Below the pieces are notes generated by a model, which saw only the letters and a list, made by a program, of their open reading frames with translations, did not search any database and had not been told where the DNA came from. A DNA stretch of 64,000 bases from Planctomycetota bacterium (GTDB lineage: Bacteria > Planctomycetota > MHYJ01 > JACPRB01): NCBI GenBank assembly GCA_016209705.1, contig JACQVR010000094.1, forward strand, positions 64-64,063. The letters run 5' to 3'. Positions 2,488-63,410 of the stretch are shown one piece after another. Within the stretch, counting starts at the first letter, position 1. Each line of letters begins with the position of its first letter. The position numbers and the translations under genes were made by a program.

Positions 2488-2988
2488 TTATTTCTTCTTT
2501 TCCCCGTCCTTTTCTTGCGACGGCTCCACGAACGAGACGTCGTGCTTCTTGAGGATGTCCCGGAACTTGGCTTCCAGCTCCGCGGCGGACGTCACGCCCT
2601 TTCTCCCGCGATAGGGAATCGCCTCGTGGATTTTCTTGTCGGGTGAGACGAGCCACAGGATCTGTCCGCCGTTCCAGCCGTCGGTCTCTTTCCAGAGCTC
2701 CGGCTCGATTTTTTCGCCCTTCTTGCGGGGCGTCCGGGGATGCCACGTCAGGACGGGGTAGAAATTCGTTTCGATGACCTTCTTGATCCGTTCGTCGAGA
2801 AGCGAACCGTTCTCGAATTTCTGGCAGGACGGTCAGCGCGGCCATTCTTTGTAGATGAGGACCCATCGCGACGTCTTCTCGTCCTGGGCCTTCTCGAAGG
2901 CCTCCTCGGACGACATCCATTTGATCTCGTCGATCCGATCGCCCGCGGCGACCGCCGCCGCCATGCCCAACCAGAGCATCGTCTTCAT
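2488..2988 (-). CDS. Secreted thioredoxin-fold (Thioredoxin_7/DsbD-gamma-like) protein with an in-frame TGA (complement 2833-2835) at the first position of a U-P-S-C (UxxC) redox motif. Candidate selenoprotein.
   Basis: The gene starts at ATG 2988, preceded by a GGGGG RBS, and encodes a signal peptide MKTMLWLGMAAAVAAG. Translation continues ...IKWMSSEEAFEKAQDEKTSRWVLIYKEWPR-TGA-PSCQKFENGSLLDERIKK... through to TAA at 2488. The segment after the TGA has no start codon of its own. Confidence 0.55.
2795..2816 (-). promoter_or_regulatory. Candidate bacterial SECIS hairpin, 16 nt downstream of the TGA at 2833-2835.
   Basis: Sense strand reads UCGAGAA-CGGUUCGC-UUCUCGA. This is a 7-bp perfect stem whose apical loop contains GGUUC. 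Confidence 0.4.
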
Positions 2989-3157
2989 GATCTACCCCCT
3001 TGAAGTCGTTTCTGGTTATACGGGCGAACTCCGGGATGCGCGCCAAAAGACTTTTCCCCCTGACGAGGGACGCGGGACTTGGGGGGTGGAACGGGCACCT
3101 TCGTCGACTTCGCTCAAGGCACGTCGCCCGCCGGGAAGCCGCTTTTCTTGCGGCGAC

Positions 3158-3976
3158 TCAAACTTCAATGTGCTCCGCGCCGGTGTAGATGTTGAACGCG
3201 TCGGCGCGCAGGAAGCCGACCAGCGTCATCCCGGCCTGCTGGGCTATTTCGACGGCGAGGCTGGACGGCGCCGACACGGCGCAGACGGCGGAGATGCCCG
3301 CCATCATCGCTTTCTGCATGATCTCGAAGCTCGCGCGGCCGCTGACCATGAGGATGTGGCGGTCGAGCGGCACTCTCCCGTTAAGAAACATGGAACCGAT
3401 CGCCTTGTCCGTGGCGTTGTGCCGCCCGATATCTTCCCGCAGGACGAGCAGCGTACCGTGCGCGTCGAAGATCCCCGCCGCGTGAAGGCCGCCGGTGCGC
3501 TCGAACACGGTTTGAGCCTTGCGCAAGGTCTGCCCCAGGGAATAGAAAAACTCCAGCTTCAACCTCAGCTTGGAATTGGTCGGCTTCACTTCCATCTTGA
3601 TGTTTTCGATGGCCGCCTTTCCGCAGATGCCGCAGGAGCTCGTCGCGTAGAAGTTCCGCTTGAGCCGGGAGAGATCCACGGAAACGCCGGCCGCCGGCGT
3701 CACGTTGACGATGTTGCGCAGATCCGGATGCTTTTCGTCCTGGCAATACCGCAAGGCGCCGATGTCGTCGGGTGACTTCAGAATTCCTTCGGTGAACAGG
3801 AATCCGGCGGCCAGATCGAAATCTTCACCCGGCGTGCGCATGGTCACGACGACGGGTTCGTCATTGACGCGAACTTCCAGCGGCTCCTCGACGGCGAGCT
3901 CGTCGAGGTCCTGCTCGTGAGGTATGCCCTGCTCGATCTTCCGAGTGCCGTGCCGGGCGATGCGCGGTGACGTCAT
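3158..3976 (-). CDS. fdhD: Formate dehydrogenase accessory sulfurtransferase FdhD.
   Basis: A GRHNATDKAIG motif is present. The size and sequence are typical of the FdhD/NarQ family. Confidence 0.85.
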   Translation of the reverse strand: MTSPRIARHGTRKIEQGIPHEQDLDELAVEEPLEVRVNDEPVVVTMRTPGEDFDLAAGFLFTEGILKSPDDIGALRYCQDEKHPDLRNIVNVTPAAGVSVDLSRLKRNFYATSSCGICGKAAIENIKMEVKPTNSKLRLKLEFFYSLGQTLRKAQTVFERTGGLHAAGIFDAHGTLLVLREDIGRHNATDKAIGSMFLNGRVPLDRHILMVSGRASFEIMQKAMMAGISAVCAVSAPSSLAVEIAQQAGMTLVGFLRADAFNIYTGAEHIEV

Positions 3977-6273: not shown

Positions 6274-6298
6274 ACCACCAAGGCACAAGGTTGGTGGT
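6274..6298. repeat. Small hairpin ACCACCAAGGCACAAGGTTGGTGGT (8-bp stem). The CACCAAGG motif family is shared with the MITE-like element at 18515-18718.
   Basis: A perfect inverted repeat accaccaa/ttggtggt with a 9-nt loop. It lies in the divergent intergenic region between ydeP and the antitoxin gene. Confidence 0.4.
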
Positions 6299-16549: not shown

Positions 16550-17818
16550 TCATTCGGCCCGCAGCGCCAGGACCGGATCGAGCCGGGCCGCCCGGAACGC
16601 GGGAAGGGTGCCGAACAAGAGGGCGACCACGACGGAAACGCCGAACCCCAGGGGGAACGCGACCGGTTGGAACGCCACGTTCCATTGCGCCAAGGTTCCG
16701 ACGACCAGCGCGATCAAGACGCCCATTCCCAGACCGAGCAACCCGCCCAGTCCTCCCAGCAGCGTGCTCTCGCCCAGGAAAAGCTTGACGATCTCGCTTC
16801 GCGTCGCGCCCAGAGCGCGCCGAACGCCGATCTCCTGCCGACGCTCGGCCACGTTGGCCAGCATGATGTTCATGATCCCGATGCCGCCGACCAGCAGCGA
16901 GAGCGAAGCGATCGAACCCATGACCCACATGAAGATCCGCTCGGCCAGTTGATGCTCCTTCAACAAGGCGTGCGGGATCGTGGCCTCCACGTCCTTCAGG
17001 CGATGGCGGCTCTCCATCAAGTTGAGCGACGCCTGCGCCACGGGACCGAGATGGCCTACATCGGAAACGCGCAGGACGGCCCGATTCACTTCCACCTCGG
17101 TGGATTCCCAGACACCCTGACCCGAGCGGACCTGACGTGTTCCGAAACGGGCCAGCGCCGTGGAATACGGAATGTACGCGGCGTGATCCGGATTGGACAA
17201 CGCTCCCTGCGTTCCCGTCTGCCCCTTCTGCTCCAACACCCCCACGACGGTGAAGGGATCGCCGCCGATCTTGACGATCTCCCCGATGGAGTCGCTGAGC
17301 GGAAAGAGCAGGCGCGCCGTGTCGTGCCCGAGGACGCATATGGAGTCCGCCTGCCCTTCGTCCACCGGGCAGAGGAATCTCCCCTCGCGGATTCCGTGCT
17401 CCATGATCTCGCCGTACTCCGACGTCGTGGCGACCACGCTGGCGTCGGAATTCTGGAACGTCGTCGACACGTCGCGCAGGATCAGGCGCATCGGAAGCAC
17501 CGCTTCGACGCTGGGAAGGTTGTCCTTCAGAATCTCGAGGTCTTTCTGGGTGATTCCGTAGCTGGCGGTCCACGAAGACGTCGACCGCTCCTCTTCCCGC
17601 TTGCGGACCCTCTGGGGCTTGACGGAGTCCAGGATGATGTTGCGCAATCCCATGCGCTCGATGCGCGTGACGACGTCCCGCCGGGCCACCTCGCTGATGG
17701 ACAGCATGCAGATGACCGAGCTCACTCCGAACACGACGCCGAGCATGGCCAGGAAGGAGCGGGTCTTGTGCAGCAGGAGGTTCTGAAAGGCTTCGATCCA
17801 GAATTTGACGATCTTCAT
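16550..17818 (-). CDS. ABC transporter permease, MacB/FtsX family.
   Basis: The N-terminal TM is followed by a large periplasmic domain and a C-terminal FtsX 3-TM bundle, with GVRRALGATRSEIV. Confidence 0.85.
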   Translation of the reverse strand: MKIVKFWIEAFQNLLLHKTRSFLAMLGVVFGVSSVICMLSISEVARRDVVTRIERMGLRNIILDSVKPQRVRKREEERSTSSWTASYGITQKDLEILKDNLPSVEAVLPMRLILRDVSTTFQNSDASVVATTSEYGEIMEHGIREGRFLCPVDEGQADSICVLGHDTARLLFPLSDSIGEIVKIGGDPFTVVGVLEQKGQTGTQGALSNPDHAAYIPYSTALARFGTRQVRSGQGVWESTEVEVNRAVLRVSDVGHLGPVAQASLNLMESRHRLKDVEATIPHALLKEHQLAERIFMWVMGSIASLSLLVGGIGIMNIMLANVAERRQEIGVRRALGATRSEIVKLFLGESTLLGGLGGLLGLGMGVLIALVVGTLAQWNVAFQPVAFPLGFGVSVVVALLFGTLPAFRAARLDPVLALRAE

Positions 17819-18489
17819 GCCGACACCCGCCCGTTCTTCAACGTGATCGTCCGCGGCGTCCGTTCGGCGATCGCCCGATTATGCGTCACCACCACCACCG
17901 TCTTGCCTTCCCGGTTCAACGCCGCCAAGAGGTTGAAGATCTCGTTTCCGGTGTTTTCGTCGAGATTGCCCGTGGGCTCATCCGCCAGGATGAGGCTGGG
18001 ATTCCCGAGCAGGGCGCGCGCCACGGCCACGCGCTGCATCTCCCCGTTCGACAGTTCGAAGGGTCGATGGCGAAGGCGATGGGACAGGCCCACGCGCTCC
18101 AGGAGCGTCCGGGCGGTCCGCTCCTGCGCCCGCGCGTCGCCGTTCGCCAGGTACCGGGCGCCGAGCATCACGTTCTTGACGACGTTGAGCTGTGGAATGA
18201 GGTGAAACGATTGGAAGACGAAGCCGATCTCTTTCCCTCGCAGGCGCGCCTGCTCCACATCCGAGAGGTCCTGCACGGGCTGACCGTGAAAGCGGTAGGT
18301 TCCGCTCGTCGGCCGGATCATGAATCCCAGCAGATAGAGGAAGGTGGACTTGCCGGATCCCGAGCTTCCCACAATCGAGACGAATTCCCCCGCCTCCAAG
18401 GTCAGGCTGACATCCGAGAGCGCATAAACGCTCCCCCCCGGCATGGGGTATTCCTTGCCGACGCCCTGCACTTCGATCTGAGCTGGCAT
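17815..18489 (-). CDS. ABC transporter ATP-binding protein (MacB/LolD-type).
   Basis: Walker A GSSGSGKST, an LSNGEMQRVAVARAL signature and Walker B ILADEPTGNLD are present. Start MPAQIEVQG is at 18489. Confidence 0.9.
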   Translation of the reverse strand: MPAQIEVQGVGKEYPMPGGSVYALSDVSLTLEAGEFVSIVGSSGSGKSTFLYLLGFMIRPTSGTYRFHGQPVQDLSDVEQARLRGKEIGFVFQSFHLIPQLNVVKNVMLGARYLANGDARAQERTARTLLERVGLSHRLRHRPFELSNGEMQRVAVARALLGNPSLILADEPTGNLDENTGNEIFNLLAALNREGKTVVVVTHNRAIAERTPRTITLKNGRVSA

Positions 18490-18514
18490 TGCTTGACTCG
18501 GATAATTCATCAAG

Positions 18515-18718
18515 ATCACCACCAAGACACCAAGACACGAAGTAGGCTTGAGGGCACCAAGGACCGCATTTGGGTGGCTTCATCCATCGCCTCAGCTCCC
18601 GCGTGGCGACAGACTGTCGAAGCGAAGCGGAGCCAACGACCGTTGCAAAACACCATCCAGTGGCGTGCTTGGTGGCCCCTTAGCCCGCTTGGTGCCTTTG
18701 TGCCTTGGTGGTGCATGG
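18515..18718. mobile_element. MITE-like element, about 200 bp, with imperfect ~52-bp terminal inverted repeats built from CACCAAG units. It is inserted between the exporter MFP and ATPase genes.
   Basis: Left arm is atcaccaccaagacaccaagacacgaag...ggcaccaagg. The right arm's reverse complement is caccaccaaggcacaaaggcaccaagcgg...ccaccaagcacgc. No credible ORF is present. Confidence 0.45.
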
Positions 18719-18733
18719 ACAACTCAGGTGACC

Positions 18734-20212
18734 CTATCCCTTAAACGGATTGTAGAGGTACACCTTTTCGCCGGGCCGCAGGCCTTCCACGATCTGCACG
18801 GCCTTGCCGTTGCTGGTCGCGATCTTCACTTCGCGCTTGACCGGGCGATCGCCTTCCTGGACGTAGCAGTAGTACTGCCCTCCTTCTGCGAAGACCGAAA
18901 CCACGGGCACCTGAACGGCTTCCGCGACGGTGTCGACGTGGATCGTGACGCGGCAGTTCATTCCTGCCCGCAGTTGAGGATGGACTCCTTCGTACGCGCC
19001 GACGACCTTGAAAGACCGGACGGCGCTCATGAACTCGTCGCGGCTGGCGATATGCTCGACTTTCGTCACTTTTCCGCGGATGTTCAGATCCGGGAACGCG
19101 TCCGGACGAAGGGTGATCGGCAAGCCCTCCTTCATGTGCTGGATGTCGTTCTCCCGCACCTGCATCTTGACGGACAAATGCTCCATGGAGGCGATGGTCA
19201 GCAGCGTTTCGTGCGTCTGCACCCGGCCGCCCACGCGCAGGTTCCGCTGGCCGCCCCCGAAGGAAATGATCACGTCGCCGAGCGGATTCTCGTCCGTGAG
19301 CGAGCCGTAGAAGACGATTCCGTTGCGGGGAGAAAGGACTTTCAGCATTTCCAGGTCCTGCTCGAGGCGGCTCACCTTATCCTGGGCGATCTTGAACTCG
19401 CGCTGCGCCTTCTGGACCCCGGCTTGCTTCTCCGCCACCTTCGTCTCGAAGCTGACCTTTTCCTTCTTTTCTTCGGCCTGGATCTTCTTGATCTCGAGCA
19501 TCTTCTTCTCGGCGTCGATGTCCAGCTCGTACTTCTTGAAGTGTTCCAGCTTCTCCCGCTGCTTCTCGAGCCCTCGCTCCGCTTCCTCGATTTGCCGCCG
19601 CGCGCGCTCGACCAGAATCGTTTCGGTGGCGGTATGGAGTTCCCGCTCGTCGTACAGCTTCTTGAGCTGCTCGAAATTGATCCGGCTGTCCTTCAATGAA
19701 TTTTCCGAGTTGCGGATTTCTTTCAACTTGTCGTCCAGCTTGAACTCCTTGTTCTTCACCTCCGCCTCATGGCTCCGCTCGGCCATCTCCAGCTCTTTGA
19801 GGATGCGCTCCAGGGTCGCCGCCTGATCGATTTGCGTGACGGCGAGCTCCGATTCGGCCTTTTGAAGCGCCAGGCGGGCGTCGTCCACGGCGGTGACGGC
19901 CTTTTCGATCGCGTCCTGGATCGTCTTGGTATCGAGCTGGAGGAGCGGGTCCCCTTCCTTGACGGAGGCGCCCTCGGGAATGATCTGGGTGATGATCAAG
20001 TCGCCGCGGTACTCCTTGGGCTCGACCGCGATGCGCGTCTTGTCTTCGGCGTGGAAGACTCCGGCGACCTGGGCCTCGATGGAGAGGTTGTCTTTCACGA
20101 CCGTCGCCAGCATGCCCTCCTTCGCCCCTCCATCCCCCGTTTTCGCCGTGGGAAAGAGAGCCAGCGCCGCCACGGCGGAAAAAGCGATCAAGGCACCCGT
20201 CTTCACGATCAT
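18734..20212 (-). CDS. HlyD/MacA-family periplasmic adaptor (membrane fusion protein).
   Basis: A signal anchor is followed by a long coiled-coil (Glu/Lys-rich heptads). The C-terminal beta-barrel/MPD domains read KVYLYNPFKG. Confidence 0.85.
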   Translation of the reverse strand: MIVKTGALIAFSAVAALALFPTAKTGDGGAKEGMLATVVKDNLSIEAQVAGVFHAEDKTRIAVEPKEYRGDLIITQIIPEGASVKEGDPLLQLDTKTIQDAIEKAVTAVDDARLALQKAESELAVTQIDQAATLERILKELEMAERSHEAEVKNKEFKLDDKLKEIRNSENSLKDSRINFEQLKKLYDERELHTATETILVERARRQIEEAERGLEKQREKLEHFKKYELDIDAEKKMLEIKKIQAEEKKEKVSFETKVAEKQAGVQKAQREFKIAQDKVSRLEQDLEMLKVLSPRNGIVFYGSLTDENPLGDVIISFGGGQRNLRVGGRVQTHETLLTIASMEHLSVKMQVRENDIQHMKEGLPITLRPDAFPDLNIRGKVTKVEHIASRDEFMSAVRSFKVVGAYEGVHPQLRAGMNCRVTIHVDTVAEAVQVPVVSVFAEGGQYYCYVQEGDRPVKREVKIATSNGKAVQIVEGLRPGEKVYLYNPFKG

Positions 20213-30456: not shown

Positions 30457-30539
30457 TATGGTATGTTACATTCCATGTTACGTTTTATTCTCAAAACTTA
30501 TTGTAACGTTACAATATATTTTCAAAATATTTCGTAACA
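30457..30539. promoter_or_regulatory. AT-rich operator cluster A. It holds a perfect palindrome TTGTAACGTTACAA (30501-30514) and arrayed GTTAC/GTAAC half-sites separated by TTTTCAAAA-type cores.
   Basis: An ~85-bp island of >75% AT in a 68% GC genome, immediately upstream of the mscL-like gene and the DUF21-CBS-EIIA gene. The same motif grammar recurs at 34980-35012 and 39185-39280. Confidence 0.5.
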
Positions 30540-39184: not shown

Positions 39185-39280
39185 TGTTACAAAACATTTT
39201 CAAAATATATCGTAACGTTACAATATATTTTGAAAACTATTTGTAACTGTTACATAAAGTTCTCAAAACTTATTGTAACG
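39185..39280. promoter_or_regulatory. AT-rich operator cluster C. Three consecutive GTTAC-N19/20-GTAAC dyads including TCGTAACGTTACAA, in the divergent region between the E1 fusion gene and trpD.
   Basis: Sequence is TGTTACAAAACATTTTCAAAATATATCGTAACGTTACAATATATTTTGAAAACTATTTGTAACTGTTACATAAAGTTCTCAAAACTTATTGTAACG. A TTGACA -35 box follows at 39282. Confidence 0.5.
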
Positions 39281-45507: not shown

Positions 45508-46680
45508 TTATCCGGCTATCCTCTGGAGCCATTCTCCAGGGTTGCATACGAGGAGGGATGGATTTTCGATCTTGCGCGCGATTCGGCAGACGAGAACGCG
45601 GCGCTTTGCCTGGATCATGTCCGCCGTTTTGTTCAACCGTTCGATCTCTTCAGTCGAGGGATTAGAGGTCAGCTTGATCTCGACGGCCCACGATTCTCCG
45701 CCTTTTTCCAGCACGAGGTCCAATTCGTAGCCGTCCGACGTGCGGAAGAAATAGGCGCGATCTTGCTTGCCTACGGCGGAGAGCGCGGCGAGCGTTTGCT
45801 CGATCACGAAGCCCTCCCAGCTTGCGCCCAGCCAGGGCTGGCGATACAGGTGATCGAGATCGTTTACCCCCATCAACGAGTGAAGCAGGCCGCTGTCCCT
45901 CCAGTAAACGCGGGGCACCCTGACGAGGCGCTTCCTGATGTTCTTGAAATAAGGTTGGAGCCTATGGATGAGGAAGGCGCCCTCCAGGTAATCGCAATAT
46001 CGGATGACGGTCTTGTGGTCCAGCGCCAGGCTTGACCCGAGCTGGGAGGCGTTCAGCGGTTGTCCCTGGATGGAGGCGAGCATGTGCAGCAATCGAAGCA
46101 GCAACTGCGGTTTGGCCGGCAGGCCCCACGTGGGAAGATCGCGCGTCACCTGCGTGTTCAAATAATCCCGCTGCCATTCGGGAAACATCCGAGCGTCGAG
46201 AATCCCGCCGTCGGGATAGCCGCCGCGAAGCCACAGATCATCGATTTGGTCAGGTGCAAGTTCGGGCAAAATGAAGGGACTCATCATGACCAGTCCCATT
46301 CGGCCGGCCAAGGATTCTGAGACATTCTCCATCAACGCCGGGGAGACCGAGCCCAGAAGCAGGAAGCGTCCGTTTCGCTTTCGGTCCGCATCGATGGCCC
46401 CGCGCAGCCGCGAAAAAACCTCGGGGGCTTGCTGGACCTCGTCGAGAACGATCAATTTTTTGCCCGCCACCAAGGCATCCCATTCGGCGTCGAGGCGGGC
46501 TTCGCCGCCGTCCGTTTCCAGGTCGAAATAGACGCCTTCGAAGCCGCGGGCGAGCGTGGTCTTGCCGCATTGACGCGGCCCCAGAATACCCACGGCGGGG
46601 AACTTCCCGAGCTTGTCCCGTACTTGGAGGGCATAGAGACGGGGAATCATTTCTTGTATTATGGGAATTCGTTCCCACAT
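45508..46680 (-). CDS. AAA-family ATPase (AAA_14 plus DUF4143 type).
   Basis: Walker A GPRQCGKTT, Walker B LIVLDEVQ and a DUF4143-like C-terminal domain are present. Start MWERIPII. Confidence 0.75.
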   Translation of the reverse strand: MWERIPIIQEMIPRLYALQVRDKLGKFPAVGILGPRQCGKTTLARGFEGVYFDLETDGGEARLDAEWDALVAGKKLIVLDEVQQAPEVFSRLRGAIDADRKRNGRFLLLGSVSPALMENVSESLAGRMGLVMMSPFILPELAPDQIDDLWLRGGYPDGGILDARMFPEWQRDYLNTQVTRDLPTWGLPAKPQLLLRLLHMLASIQGQPLNASQLGSSLALDHKTVIRYCDYLEGAFLIHRLQPYFKNIRKRLVRVPRVYWRDSGLLHSLMGVNDLDHLYRQPWLGASWEGFVIEQTLAALSAVGKQDRAYFFRTSDGYELDLVLEKGGESWAVEIKLTSNPSTEEIERLNKTADMIQAKRRVLVCRIARKIENPSLLVCNPGEWLQRIAG

Positions 46681-61031: not shown

Positions 61032-63383
61032 ATGGGCGGCACGCGGACCCGTGCGGAAGCGGCGGGGATTTTCCTGCTCAGCGCCGCCTGTCTGTTCTTC
61101 GAGCTCCACGCGTTCCGATTCTTCACGCTTTCCCAATGGCACCATTTTGGAGCGCTCGTCGTTTCGCTGGCGCTCTTCGGCGGCGCGGCGGCGGGTGTCG
61201 CCCTCGCGCTGTCGAGGCGCCTTCGGCGGGCGGATCCCGGGACCGCTGCGGCGACATGCGCCGTCGCCATGGCGGTCTCCGCGTGGGCTGGCCTGCACGC
61301 CGCTTCCTGGATCCCTTTCCGTCCGGTTCGCGCCTCGGTGGGACCGGAAGAACTGGCGGCGGTGGCGGGATGGTATCTATGTTTCGGCGTCCCGATGTTC
61401 TTCGCCTCGTTGGGCGTGCTGTACTTCCTGCTCAGGCGTCCCGGGAACGTGGGGACGATCTATGCGTCCAATCTTCTCGGCGGGGCGGCGGGCGTAGCGT
61501 CGGCCCTTTGGCTGGAAAGCGCCCTCGACGGGCAGGAAGCGGCGGCAACGGCCGTTTTGGGCCTCTGCGCCGCCACGTGCTTCGTTCATCTTTCCCCGTG
61601 GCGGATCGGCGGCGCGTCCGTTTTCTTGCTGCTCGCCGCCTGGATGCGTCCCGAGATCCCGGTATCCGAATTCAAGGCCCTGGCGAGCCTGCCGAATACG
61701 CTGGGAGCGCGCAGCGTTCATTCTGGTCGTGCCGAAGGACATCACGTGGCGTTGTTGAAGGTTCCCACGTTTCGGCGCGCGCCGGGACTCTCGCTGGCCT
61801 ATCGTGGAAGGGTTCCGACCGGTCTGACCGTCGTGGTGGACGGCGATCGTCCCGATGTGCTTCTCGAACCGCCCGTGGATCCGGATCTGCCGGCCCATCT
61901 GCCGGGAGCCGTCGGCCACGAGCTGGCCCCCGAAGGGCGAGCTTTGATCCTGGACGCGGCGGGGAATCTGCCGGTCCTGACCGCCAACCGATATGGGAGA
62001 TCTTCGCTGGTGCATCTCCCTCCCGAAATCGCGGGCGTTTGGTTCGACGTTCAGGGCTTGGATGCCCGCCGATATTTCCCGGGGGCGACGGTGGTGACGG
62101 TTCCTCCGAGAACGCTGCTGCGGGCCCAACCCGACGGCTCGGTTGCGTATGTGGAGATCGCCTTGCGTGACGGCGCGGCCACCATGACGGCCGCTCTGGG
62201 ACAGCCGACCGAAGGCTATCTGTTCACGGTGGAAGCGTGGAGGGAAATGCTGAGGTGTCTGGCTCCGGACGGCCTCTTGTGCGTGACGCGATGGCTCGAA
62301 TTTCCTCCGCGCGAAAGCTTGCGGCTGGCCGCGACCGCCGTCGAGGCGTTGAAAGAAGGCGCTCCGGCGGAGCGCTGCCTCGTGGCGTTTCGGTCGCTCC
62401 AGACGATCACCTTTCTAATCAGGCCTCGAGGATTCGATCCAGCTTCGCGCCGACGGTTGGCCGAAGCGCTGCGAAGGCGATCCTACGAATTGATCTATCC
62501 TGCGGGAGGAGGCGGAGTTCATGCCGCCGCCCTCGATGCGTTGCTGCGCGATCCGGAGAAGTTGTACGCTTCCTATCCCTTCTACATACGTCCCGCGACG
62601 GATGACCGGCCCTTCCCATGGTTTTTCCTCAAGCCGGGACGACTGGGCGAGTTGCGCGAACGGGCGGACATCGGCTGGCGCCCCCTGCTGGACGGGGGGT
62701 TTCTTTTGGGAGCCGCGGCGGTGCAGGCGGCCTTCATCGGCTTGATCTTGATCGCGCTTCCCTTTCTGCGAGCGCGCGATCGGCCTCCCGTATCGTCGGC
62801 GGTCGCGCCCGGAATCTACTTCTTCTTGATCGGCCTCGGATTTCTATTCGTTGAAATCCCTCTCGCGCAAATCTTGACGCGATCGGCGCCTTCGGCCGCG
62901 CATGCGTTCGGACTCGTGATCGCGACCATGTTCCTGGGCGCCGGCACCGGTTCCTACTTGTCCGGACGTCTGAGACTGGATCGTGTGGCCGTCGTCGTGG
63001 CCGCCGCCGCGCTGGTGATCGGTGCGCAGTGTGCCTTGTTGCCGCGGATCGGGACGTGGACGCTGGTTCCGGGAGGGTGGTGGATGGTTGGATCCCTTCT
63101 GGGCGCGCTTCCCTCCGTGGCCATGGGCATGGCCATGCCGGGAGGATTTCGCTGGGCGGGGCCGCTCGGCTCTTGGGGACCTTCCTGGGGATGGGCGGTC
63201 AATGGATGCGCCTCGGTGGTTTCGCCGCTTTTGGCGTCGATCCTGGCACTCGGCGTCGGGTTCCGTTTTGTGCTCGGCGTGGCGGCGGTCCTATACGTTA
63301 CCGCCGGAGGAATGCTTTATTTCAAGTCCCGAGTCGTGAGTCCGGAGTCCCGAGTCGAAGACGAGCTATCGCCTTCTTCATGA
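61032..63383 (+). CDS. Polytopic membrane protein with a spermidine/spermine-synthase-like (aminopropyltransferase) domain.
   Basis: N-terminal TM helices are followed by a central methyltransferase-like fold (LLCVTRWLEFPPRESL) and C-terminal TM helices. The extreme C-terminus overlaps GAGTC heptamer repeats and may terminate earlier. Confidence 0.55.
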   Translation: MGGTRTRAEAAGIFLLSAACLFFELHAFRFFTLSQWHHFGALVVSLALFGGAAAGVALALSRRLRRADPGTAAATCAVAMAVSAWAGLHAASWIPFRPVRASVGPEELAAVAGWYLCFGVPMFFASLGVLYFLLRRPGNVGTIYASNLLGGAAGVASALWLESALDGQEAAATAVLGLCAATCFVHLSPWRIGGASVFLLLAAWMRPEIPVSEFKALASLPNTLGARSVHSGRAEGHHVALLKVPTFRRAPGLSLAYRGRVPTGLTVVVDGDRPDVLLEPPVDPDLPAHLPGAVGHELAPEGRALILDAAGNLPVLTANRYGRSSLVHLPPEIAGVWFDVQGLDARRYFPGATVVTVPPRTLLRAQPDGSVAYVEIALRDGAATMTAALGQPTEGYLFTVEAWREMLRCLAPDGLLCVTRWLEFPPRESLRLAATAVEALKEGAPAERCLVAFRSLQTITFLIRPRGFDPASRRRLAEALRRRSYELIYPAGGGGVHAAALDALLRDPEKLYASYPFYIRPATDDRPFPWFFLKPGRLGELRERADIGWRPLLDGGFLLGAAAVQAAFIGLILIALPFLRARDRPPVSSAVAPGIYFFLIGLGFLFVEIPLAQILTRSAPSAAHAFGLVIATMFLGAGTGSYLSGRLRLDRVAVVVAAAALVIGAQCALLPRIGTWTLVPGGWWMVGSLLGALPSVAMGMAMPGGFRWAGPLGSWGPSWGWAVNGCASVVSPLLASILALGVGFRFVLGVAAVLYVTAGGMLYFKSRVVSPESRVEDELSPSS

Positions 63384-63410
63384 CCGGACTCATGACTCAT
63401 GACTCGTGAC
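63324..63410. repeat. GAGTCNN heptamer repeats in inverted arrangement (4 units forward at 63324-63358, 3 units reverse at 63386-63410) between convergent genes.
   Basis: Forward units are GAGTCGT GAGTCCG GAGTCCC GAGTCGA. Reverse units are GACTCAT GACTCAT GACTC. Together they can form a long imperfect hairpin. The unit matches the 57422-57463 array. Confidence 0.6.

Follow-up and report, generated by a model that had tools for sequence, protein, structure and literature searches.

The 64,000-nt window analysed in this work (positions 64 to 64,063 of contig JACQVR010000094.1, assembly GCA_016209705.1, from a Planctomycetota bacterium) carries a macA/macB-like efflux operon on its minus strand, in which the gene for a HlyD-family adaptor is followed by those for an ABC ATPase and a MacB-type permease (Table 1). 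The 244-nt spacer between the adaptor and the ATPase (18490-18733) contains a palindromic element of 197 nt (18517-18713), which begins 20 nt past the HlyD stop codon, ends 27 nt ahead of the ABC start codon and is co-oriented with the operon genes. A first-pass annotation, made from the sequence alone, had described a ~200-bp element resembling a miniature inverted-repeat transposable element (MITE) at this place, with ~52-bp ends built of CACCAAG/CTTGGTG units, and had suggested that it could act as an attenuator. The segment is real, and its ends are indeed built of such units. The inverted ends nevertheless resolve into two nested layers rather than one, namely outer arms of 26 nt each, in which CAC is followed by three CACNAAG units that recur every 8 nt, and an inner inverted pair (18552-18564 and 18665-18677) that brings one further CACCAAG unit. 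The left arm on the plus strand reads CACCACCAAGACACCAAGACACGAAG, and the right arm, reverse-complemented, reads CACCACCAAGGCACAAAGGCACCAAG. The window has 12 occurrences of the motif CACCAAG where 4.4 would be expected, half of them (6/12) lying inside the element, and the 14-mer CACCACCAAGGCAC is found 5 times with up to two mismatches against 0.22 expected; the matches to it at 46465 and 48548 resemble chance matches within coding sequence.

The spacer folds as one long hairpin. As sense RNA, that is, read from the minus strand, it reaches -108.7 kcal/mol (z -4.3), a value equalled by none of 200 shuffles; the corresponding values are -98.7 kcal/mol for the antisense RNA of the plus strand and -47.2 kcal/mol (z -3.3) for the DNA. 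In two hairpins of the window, the sense RNA folds about 10 kcal/mol better than the antisense RNA. An ATG abuts the 5' arm and a TGA closes the reading frame at the other end, so that a 68-codon open reading frame (ORF) runs from arm to arm. This frame has no Pfam match, and we rejected it as a gene, since it results from the presence of the ATG and TGA beside the arms. The inner 145 nt are otherwise unique: no similar sequence was present among the 130 loci compared, and a 24-mer taken from them had no exact match in metagenome contigs. The full 197-nt sequence is therefore unique, and the status of the element as a repeat is limited to its arms, which are shared with other loci.

The window holds at least three copies of the family, at 18.5 kb, at 50.6 kb and, as a mini-hairpin, at 6.27 kb. 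The mini-hairpin had already been pointed out as a relative of the element, and it does match the outermost part of both arms, with 4 nt between the two halves, while as a fold alone it is weak (z -1.8). The 50.6-kb copy lies between a Lactamase_B_3 gene and the next minus-strand ORF and reads ATGAACCGCCAAGACGCTAAAGCGCC...GGCGGTTTGGTGCTTTGGCGGTTCAA on the minus strand; its sense RNA folds at -47.7 kcal/mol (z -5.3), and it also has an ATG before its 5' arm on that strand (ATGAACCGCCAAGAC).

Table 1. Positions of the element, its parts, the host operon, related hairpins in the window, and four-helix-bundle genes in other loci
Feature	Position	Strand	Basis or remark
Whole hairpin element	18517..18713	-	Operon orientation; inverted repeats, fold, shorter orthologous spacers
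5' arm, transcribed strand: CACCACCAAGGCACAAAGGCACCAAG	18688..18713	-	Fits the 180-arm logo at every constrained position; exact match to the scan pattern
3' arm, transcribed strand: CTTCGTGTCTTGGTGTCTTGGTGGTG	18517..18542	-	Reverse complement CACCACCAAGACACCAAGACACGAAG fits the logo; pairs with the 5' arm
Inner 145 nt	18543..18687	-	Second inverted pair inside; otherwise unique
ATG abutting the 5' arm, as in ORF-bearing cassettes	18714..18716	-	Sequence
TGA ending the arm-to-arm 68-codon ORF	18516-18518	-	Sequence
Upstream gene, HlyD-family membrane-fusion adaptor	18734..20212	-	Pfam HlyD_D23, HlyD_3
Downstream ABC ATPase	17815-18489	-	Pfam ABC_tran
Downstream MacB-type permease	16550-17818	-	Pfam MacB_PCD and FtsX
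Mini-hairpin GAACCACCAAGGCAC-AAGG-TTGGTGGTGAA	6272..6301	.	Stem 6274-6281 / 6291-6298; divergent intergenic region
Third family member, 82 nt, variant units CGCCAAG/CACCAAA	50594..50675	-	Whole-window inverted-repeat scan
Four-helix-bundle gene, locus L218	601-969		Also weak bAvd match; arms of tandem TCAGCNN units
Four-helix-bundle gene, locus L222	601-960		Also weak bAvd match; arms of tandem TCAGCNN units
Four-helix-bundle gene, locus L224	601-975		Also weak bAvd match; arms of tandem TCAGCNN units

The repeat is not specific to this genome but occurs across phyla and is built like the intervening sequences (IVSs) of 23S rRNA, both of which the first-pass annotation had missed. A scan of one genome per species (GTDB) with the arm pattern CACCACCAAGRCACNAAGRCAC, for which about one chance match is expected, found arms in at least 120 genome stretches, so that together with the other copies in the window the family is no single-copy sequence. 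The bacterial carriers span well over a dozen phyla and include Acidobacteriota, Planctomycetota, Verrucomicrobiota, Armatimonadota, Chloroflexota, Cyanobacteriota, alpha-, beta-, gamma- and 'delta'-proteobacteria, Hydrogenedentota, Sumerlaeota, NC10, WOR-3 and Bacteroidota, and one archaeal metagenome-assembled genome (MAG) is also among the carriers. Cultured organisms are represented by Fischerella PCC 7521 and PCC 9431, three Azospirillum species, Caenispirillum, Thiohalophilus and Holophaga foetida, and one carrier is a complete chromosome. Merely 5 arm matches were found in 2.9 million viral contigs, and plasmids yielded no blastn match to the arm, for which low-complexity masking is the probable cause. 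A literature search with arm strings of 15-17 nt returned no relevant paper, and ten-mers matched primers only; as far as the searchable literature and Rfam show, this widespread family of hairpin cassettes is undescribed.

The logo of 180 arms reads TT-CACCACCAAG-R-CAC-N-AAG-R-CAC-N-AAG. Positions that were left free in the search are conserved all the same (89-94% in the third unit and ~73% for the TT), conservation breaks off abruptly at -3 and +26, where it reaches background level, and the sequence flanking the arm on the outside is rich in purines. Both arms of the 18.5-kb element fit all constrained logo positions in inverted orientation; the TT is replaced by AT on one side and by TG on the other, and the two R-position mispairs between the arms are G-U on the sense strand. 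Most arms in the family are arranged as a plus arm followed by a minus arm, forming hairpins of 50-120 nt (median ~89) with unrelated loops and 2-6 units per arm. Within the stems, complementarity reaches 93% at the CAC/AAG positions, 67% at the N positions (51% expected, permutation p < 1e-4) and 57% at the R positions, the last being close to random. Since CAC and AAG are kept while N and R drift nearly independently, the arms are conserved as sequence and not only as pairing.

The family hairpins are intergenic and often lie less than 30 nt from either neighbour, as the window element does, and in a heuristic ORF map 26 of them stood between co-directional, 12 between convergent and 5 between divergent genes. 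Several genomes have at least 3-4 copies among the matches listed, the source genome has at least 3 in the 64 kb of the window, and some multi-copy loci share similar extended flanks (L010/L031/L058, L028/L088 and L085/L090). With at least three copies in the window, mostly co-directional or convergent spacers, and relatives of the operon that do without the element, the idea of a small repeat family living in operon spacers has held up well. There are also 17 'inside-out' junctions, in which the minus arm comes first and an A/T-rich spacer of 14-30 nt (mode 21-22) separates it from the plus arm; they include L017, L025, L042, L063, L102 and L109 as well as 11 other junctions, and heterocystous cyanobacteria often have them. 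L042 has a thiolase gene enclosed by a plus arm and a minus arm, each of which has an inside-out partner. Some hairpin loops hold other widespread short repeats (L006 5560-5820, GTCATCCTGAGCGAAGCGAAGGATC; L020 4600-4900, GTCATTCCCGCGAAGGCGGGAATC), indicating that loops can be mosaics.

Besides these short hairpins there is a discrete class of arm pairs 391-415 nt apart that encloses a single ORF of about 125-135 aa, and this ORF encodes a GxxExxY protein (TIGR04256, E 1e-36 to 1e-43; Pfam PDDEXK_3, PF13366). The cassette has two inverted arms of 26-28 nt, each made of TTCAC/GAAC plus about three tandem 8-nt units (CACNAAGR in the window element), and its full-length copies enclose a GxxExxY gene. 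Six such genes occur in the ~120 arm-selected loci, every one with arms immediately on either side, and these loci have no other recurrent ORF family. Translation of the gene starts at or inside the 5' arm and stops just ahead of the 3' arm, an arrangement that is visible in the proteins: about half of the best 120 GxxExxY homologues start with MNHQDTK(A/T)PREPIP, which is ATG plus the translated arm, and the others with M(x)EPIP.

The association was also found in the reverse direction, in 72 metagenome GxxExxY loci chosen by protein motifs alone and scored for arm bracketing by unit-motif counts, since 8- and 9-nt units are mixed. Tandem-unit inverted arms bracket 53 of these 72 genes (31 with CRC-N-AAG, 21 with CRC-N-GAG and 1 with CAC-N-ACG units), while 8 of the remaining loci have other inverted repeats and 11 have none. 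Cassettes with other units include those of Bacteroides (TTCAC-CACAGAGGA-CGCAGAGGA), Gemmatirosa (GAAC-CGCAGAGGA), Sphingomonas (TTCAC-GCGAAGG-CGCGAGGA) and a Pirellulales genome (CACGACGA/CACAACGA). Plasmid-borne examples were obtained by tblastn of the protein; on the Sphingomonas parapaucimobilis plasmid NZ_CP155749.1 (L134 1447-1875), a GxxExxY cassette sits between fabD and fabG in a fatty-acid synthesis operon. The annotated coding sequence of that locus reads through the 3' arm, an example of how arms inflate gene calls. GxxExxY genes are mostly co-oriented with their neighbours (51/60 upstream and 48/60 downstream), which fits read-through expression from the host operon. As for the protein itself, D72 and K84 are invariant and E82 is nearly so, leaving the D...ExK motif intact, and no solved homologue was found by sequence. 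A 2012 superfamily survey listed PDDEXK_3 as 'unknown' with multiple transfers between divisions, and our literature search found GxxExxY/PDDEXK_3 solely in that survey and in passing mentions. In L126 (~2965-3000 and 3475-3510; also in L125 and L127-L130), about 34 nt of the metG 3' end (GCGAGATYTCGRGCGGGATTCCGGTAAAATAGGA) are directly duplicated around a GxxExxY cassette, with a tRNA gene ~125 nt further downstream; no such duplication was seen in 45 other cassettes.

ORF-less hairpins outnumber ORF-bearing cassettes by 57 to 6 in the arm-selected loci, and a few loci document the passage from one to the other. L012 is a frameshifted cassette, L013 keeps just the 3' end of the ORF beside an arm, and the 84-nt hairpin of L117 has a loop in which the first codons (REPI) are joined to the last (QRIAL, stop); these three form a decay series. 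The loop of the window element has no GxxExxY ORF, and we therefore filed the element as an ORF-less derivative; given the ATG before their 5' arms, we infer the same status for the 18.5-kb and 50.6-kb copies alike.

Comparison of the host operon with its relatives bears on how the element came to be there. The adaptor has an identical (100%) protein in a Planctomycetes MAG, and the next relatives share 53-58% amino-acid identity with it. In three of these relatives the genes of the operon are arranged alike, the adaptor and ATPase being separated by 69, 72 and 5 nt without arm motifs, and the window spacer minus the element would be 47 nt. The element is thus present in an operon spacer, and judging from these relatives it would have arrived there by insertion.

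The known system that most resembles this design is the 23S rRNA IVS with its S23p/four-helix-bundle ORF, which occurs in Coxiella, Leptospira and Salmonella. The IVS of Coxiella has a 28-bp terminal stem, within which RNase III excises it; tandem heptamers, in numbers that differ among strains, stand between an AG-rich stretch and a small, decaying S23p ORF (PMC4990558). The hairpin family likewise has a terminal stem of ~26-28 bp, an AG-rich stretch with tandem short units by the start codon, one small ORF of ~120 aa in the loop that is decaying in some copies, and a position inside a host transcript. It differs in that the element lies in an mRNA operon spacer and not in helix 25 or 45 of 23S rRNA, in that the partner is a GxxExxY protein of PD-(D/E)XK fold and not S23p, and in that the units are 8-nt CACNAAGR; moreover, cleavage by RNase III has been shown for the IVS, whereas for the hairpin family we only suppose it. 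Short-probe scans for conserved rRNA segments found none in arm loci L001-L135. The four-helix-bundle genes themselves (PF05635, 23S_rRNA_IVP), retrieved by direct protein search, show a corresponding arrangement when they lie in ordinary genomic contexts, as 3 of 3 are bracketed by inverted arms of 7-nt TCAGCNN units; a regex search of the arm-selected loci found no four-helix-bundle genes.

Three further systems offer partial parallels. Neisseria Correia elements, which are MITEs co-transcribed with operons, are ~100-200 bp long with ~26-bp terminal inverted repeats, lie between genes, make TA target duplications and are confined to one genus, and their stems in mRNA are cleaved by RNase III, which alters the stability of the neighbouring cistrons. 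The hairpin family shares with them its size, ~26-bp ends and intergenic position, but it occurs in many phyla and without target duplication. Homing endonuclease genes, whether free-standing or borne by introns and including that of the PD-(D/E)XK enzyme I-Ssp6803I, are selfish small-nuclease inserts that make no target duplication and often lose their ORF, and GxxExxY is similarly a small nuclease gene inserted between host genes. Unlike GxxExxY cassettes, homing endonuclease genes are not known to have tandem-unit inverted repeats around them or abundant hairpin derivatives, and no homing site or cleavage is known for GxxExxY proteins. Repetitive extragenic palindromic (REP) sequences are lineage-specific, in contrast to the hairpin-family arms, whose tandem 8-nt units are nearly identical across phyla. 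For a repeat-flanked partner gene that presumably services many hairpin doublets, the nearest parallel is that of REPINs with their RAYT transposases (PMC3116915). The two systems have in common inverted-doublet hairpins, the lack of target duplication and a small partner gene that is itself flanked by repeats (L122, L030), and they may also share large numbers of non-autonomous extragenic copies; the partner here is of PD-(D/E)XK fold and not an IS200-like tyrosine transposase, and no RAYT ORF of that kind recurs beside the arms.

Taken together, we consider it probable that the operon spacer harbours an ORF-less member of a family of nuclease-associated hairpin cassettes that resemble the IVS, with an RNase III-type mRNA stem and nuclease-dependent spread as its supposed mode of life. 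The element would be co-transcribed with the operon, a supposition favoured by the orientation of GxxExxY genes relative to their neighbours and by the better folding of the sense RNA, so that the polycistronic mRNA would contain the 26-bp stem and its imperfect extension. By analogy with the IVS, the 26-bp terminal stem may be a substrate of RNase III, a proposal to which we give somewhat less than even weight; a cut in the stem would separate the adaptor message from the ATPase/permease message without termination of transcription. GxxExxY nucleases encoded elsewhere in the genome would sustain and spread the hairpins, and spread would proceed without target duplication in a manner resembling homing or the REPIN/RAYT system. 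Based on their association with the arms and their nuclease fold, we put forward only tentatively that the arms are the target of GxxExxY proteins, which would thereby drive or maintain the hairpins. Equally speculative is the broader view that GxxExxY genes and tandem-unit hairpins are undescribed, pan-bacterial, nuclease-driven mobile cassettes, of which the 23S rRNA IVS with its S23p gene might be one special case; in this view the nuclease would read the repeated 8-9-nt arm units as duplex or as extruded cruciform and would spread or maintain both the cassette and its far more numerous ORF-less hairpins.

Several observations weigh against this cassette interpretation. Mobility is putative, the 'empty site' comparison is with relatives of only 53-58% amino-acid identity, and both RNase III cleavage and recognition of the arms by the nuclease are suggested by analogy. 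There is no GxxExxY gene in the 64-kb window, and a hidden Markov model search of the inner 145 nt found no GxxExxY remnant, so the descent of the element from an ORF-bearing cassette rests on its arms and the ATG/TGA alone. Scraps of the ORF were seen in merely 2 of the 57 ORF-less hairpins and in none of the other 55, which means that hairpins may multiply on their own. The drift at N and R argues that RNA pairing is not the sole constraint and perhaps not the main one, and in 60 cassettes G-U mispairs on the sense strand did not significantly exceed A-C mispairs (71 vs 57, p = 0.25); both results caution against a role at the RNA level alone.

The scarcity of ORF scrap also speaks for the rival to which we give the most weight, although we think it unlikely, namely that the hairpins multiply by themselves or are produced by the host, for instance through slippage and gene conversion, and that GxxExxY genes are passengers or preferential colonisers of the loops. 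Some GxxExxY genes lie between two complete hairpins and not inside one (L122, L019), and the inside-out junctions with their fixed spacing of ~22 nt, together with unit numbers that range from 2 to 6, could also be accommodated in this way. On the other hand, 74-85% of GxxExxY genes sampled irrespective of arms are arm-bracketed, the arm unit type varies with the GxxExxY lineage, and another small ORF family has an arm type of its own.

Another explanation is that the element is a regulatory RNA selected by the host, which would set the ratio of adaptor to pump as an attenuator, a terminator or a stabiliser of the mRNA, and not mobile DNA at all. The stem in the sense transcript is very stable and sited exactly between two cistrons, and the family, like REP elements, tends to be absent from divergent promoter regions. 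Against this stands the sequence after the stem, which on the transcribed strand continues with AUCUUGAUGAAUUAUCC and has no U-tract; no terminator-like site (18200-19000) or promoter-like site accompanies the element on the minus strand, and the attenuator proposed at first is not supported. Orthologous operons do without the structure, the same arms stand beside unrelated genes in many phyla, and Rfam searches of the window and of 15 related loci at the gathering threshold, and of the spacer at E <= 10, returned only tRNAs, a tRNA being the sole match in the window. A Bacteroidales-1 match of 15.8 bits was weak and was taken as chance. We regard a host-selected regulatory RNA as quite improbable.

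The classical MITE, that is, a deletion derivative of an insertion sequence (IS) with a DDE transposase whose terminal inverted repeats allow cut-and-paste transposition in trans, fares still worse, even though it would account for a small, non-coding, multi-copy, intergenic element with terminal inverted repeats and for ORF-less copies far exceeding ORF-bearing ones (6 of ~120 loci). The flanks of the element (...GTCCATG before it and ATCTTGA... after it) share no direct repeat, and in 45 related cassettes the direct-repeat scores equalled those of a mismatched-locus null, so that the test for target-site duplications was negative. No transposase-like ORF recurs beside the arms either; the partner is a 125-aa protein of PD-(D/E)XK nuclease fold without a transposase domain, and arms of tandem 8-nt units are kept across phyla, unlike the inverted repeats specific to individual IS elements. 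The MITE label, in this usual sense, is not supported. Finally, a chance palindrome, low-complexity sequence or assembly artefact has a negligible probability, because even though the source is a MAG, shuffle statistics exclude chance and identical arms are present in isolates grown in culture and in one complete chromosome.

Two other kinds of repeat in the window deserve mention. A hairpin at 63325-63404 (-47.6 kcal/mol, z -6.8) has the architecture of the main family with a different unit, the 7-nt AGTCNNG (AGTCCCG AGTCGTG AGTCCGG ... CATGACT CATGACT), and no partner ORF was identified for it. AT-rich palindromic units of ~32 nt (TGTTACGTTTTATTCTCAAAACTTATTGTAAC / GTTACAATATATTTTCAAAATATTTCGTAACA) occur at 30476-30539 and 39186-39280 in surrounding sequence of 63% G+C, and their core TTGTAACGTTACAA is found twice against 0.02 expected.

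The importance of this hairpin family lies in the questions that it connects. GxxExxY/PDDEXK_3 proteins and the four-helix-bundle 'IVS proteins' are large families without known function, for each of which our searches found nearly 8,000 homologues at E <= 1e-10 among the best 8,000 scored, and where rRNA intervening sequences come from and how they move has been a standing question since 1990. The shared design of tandem-unit inverted arms, a small ORF and abundant ORF-less operon hairpins makes both the question of function and that of IVS origin testable. The arms also account for many annotated short hypothetical ORFs and for many false extensions of protein N-termini (MNHQDTK...), and the hairpins flag likely sites of mRNA processing in operons.

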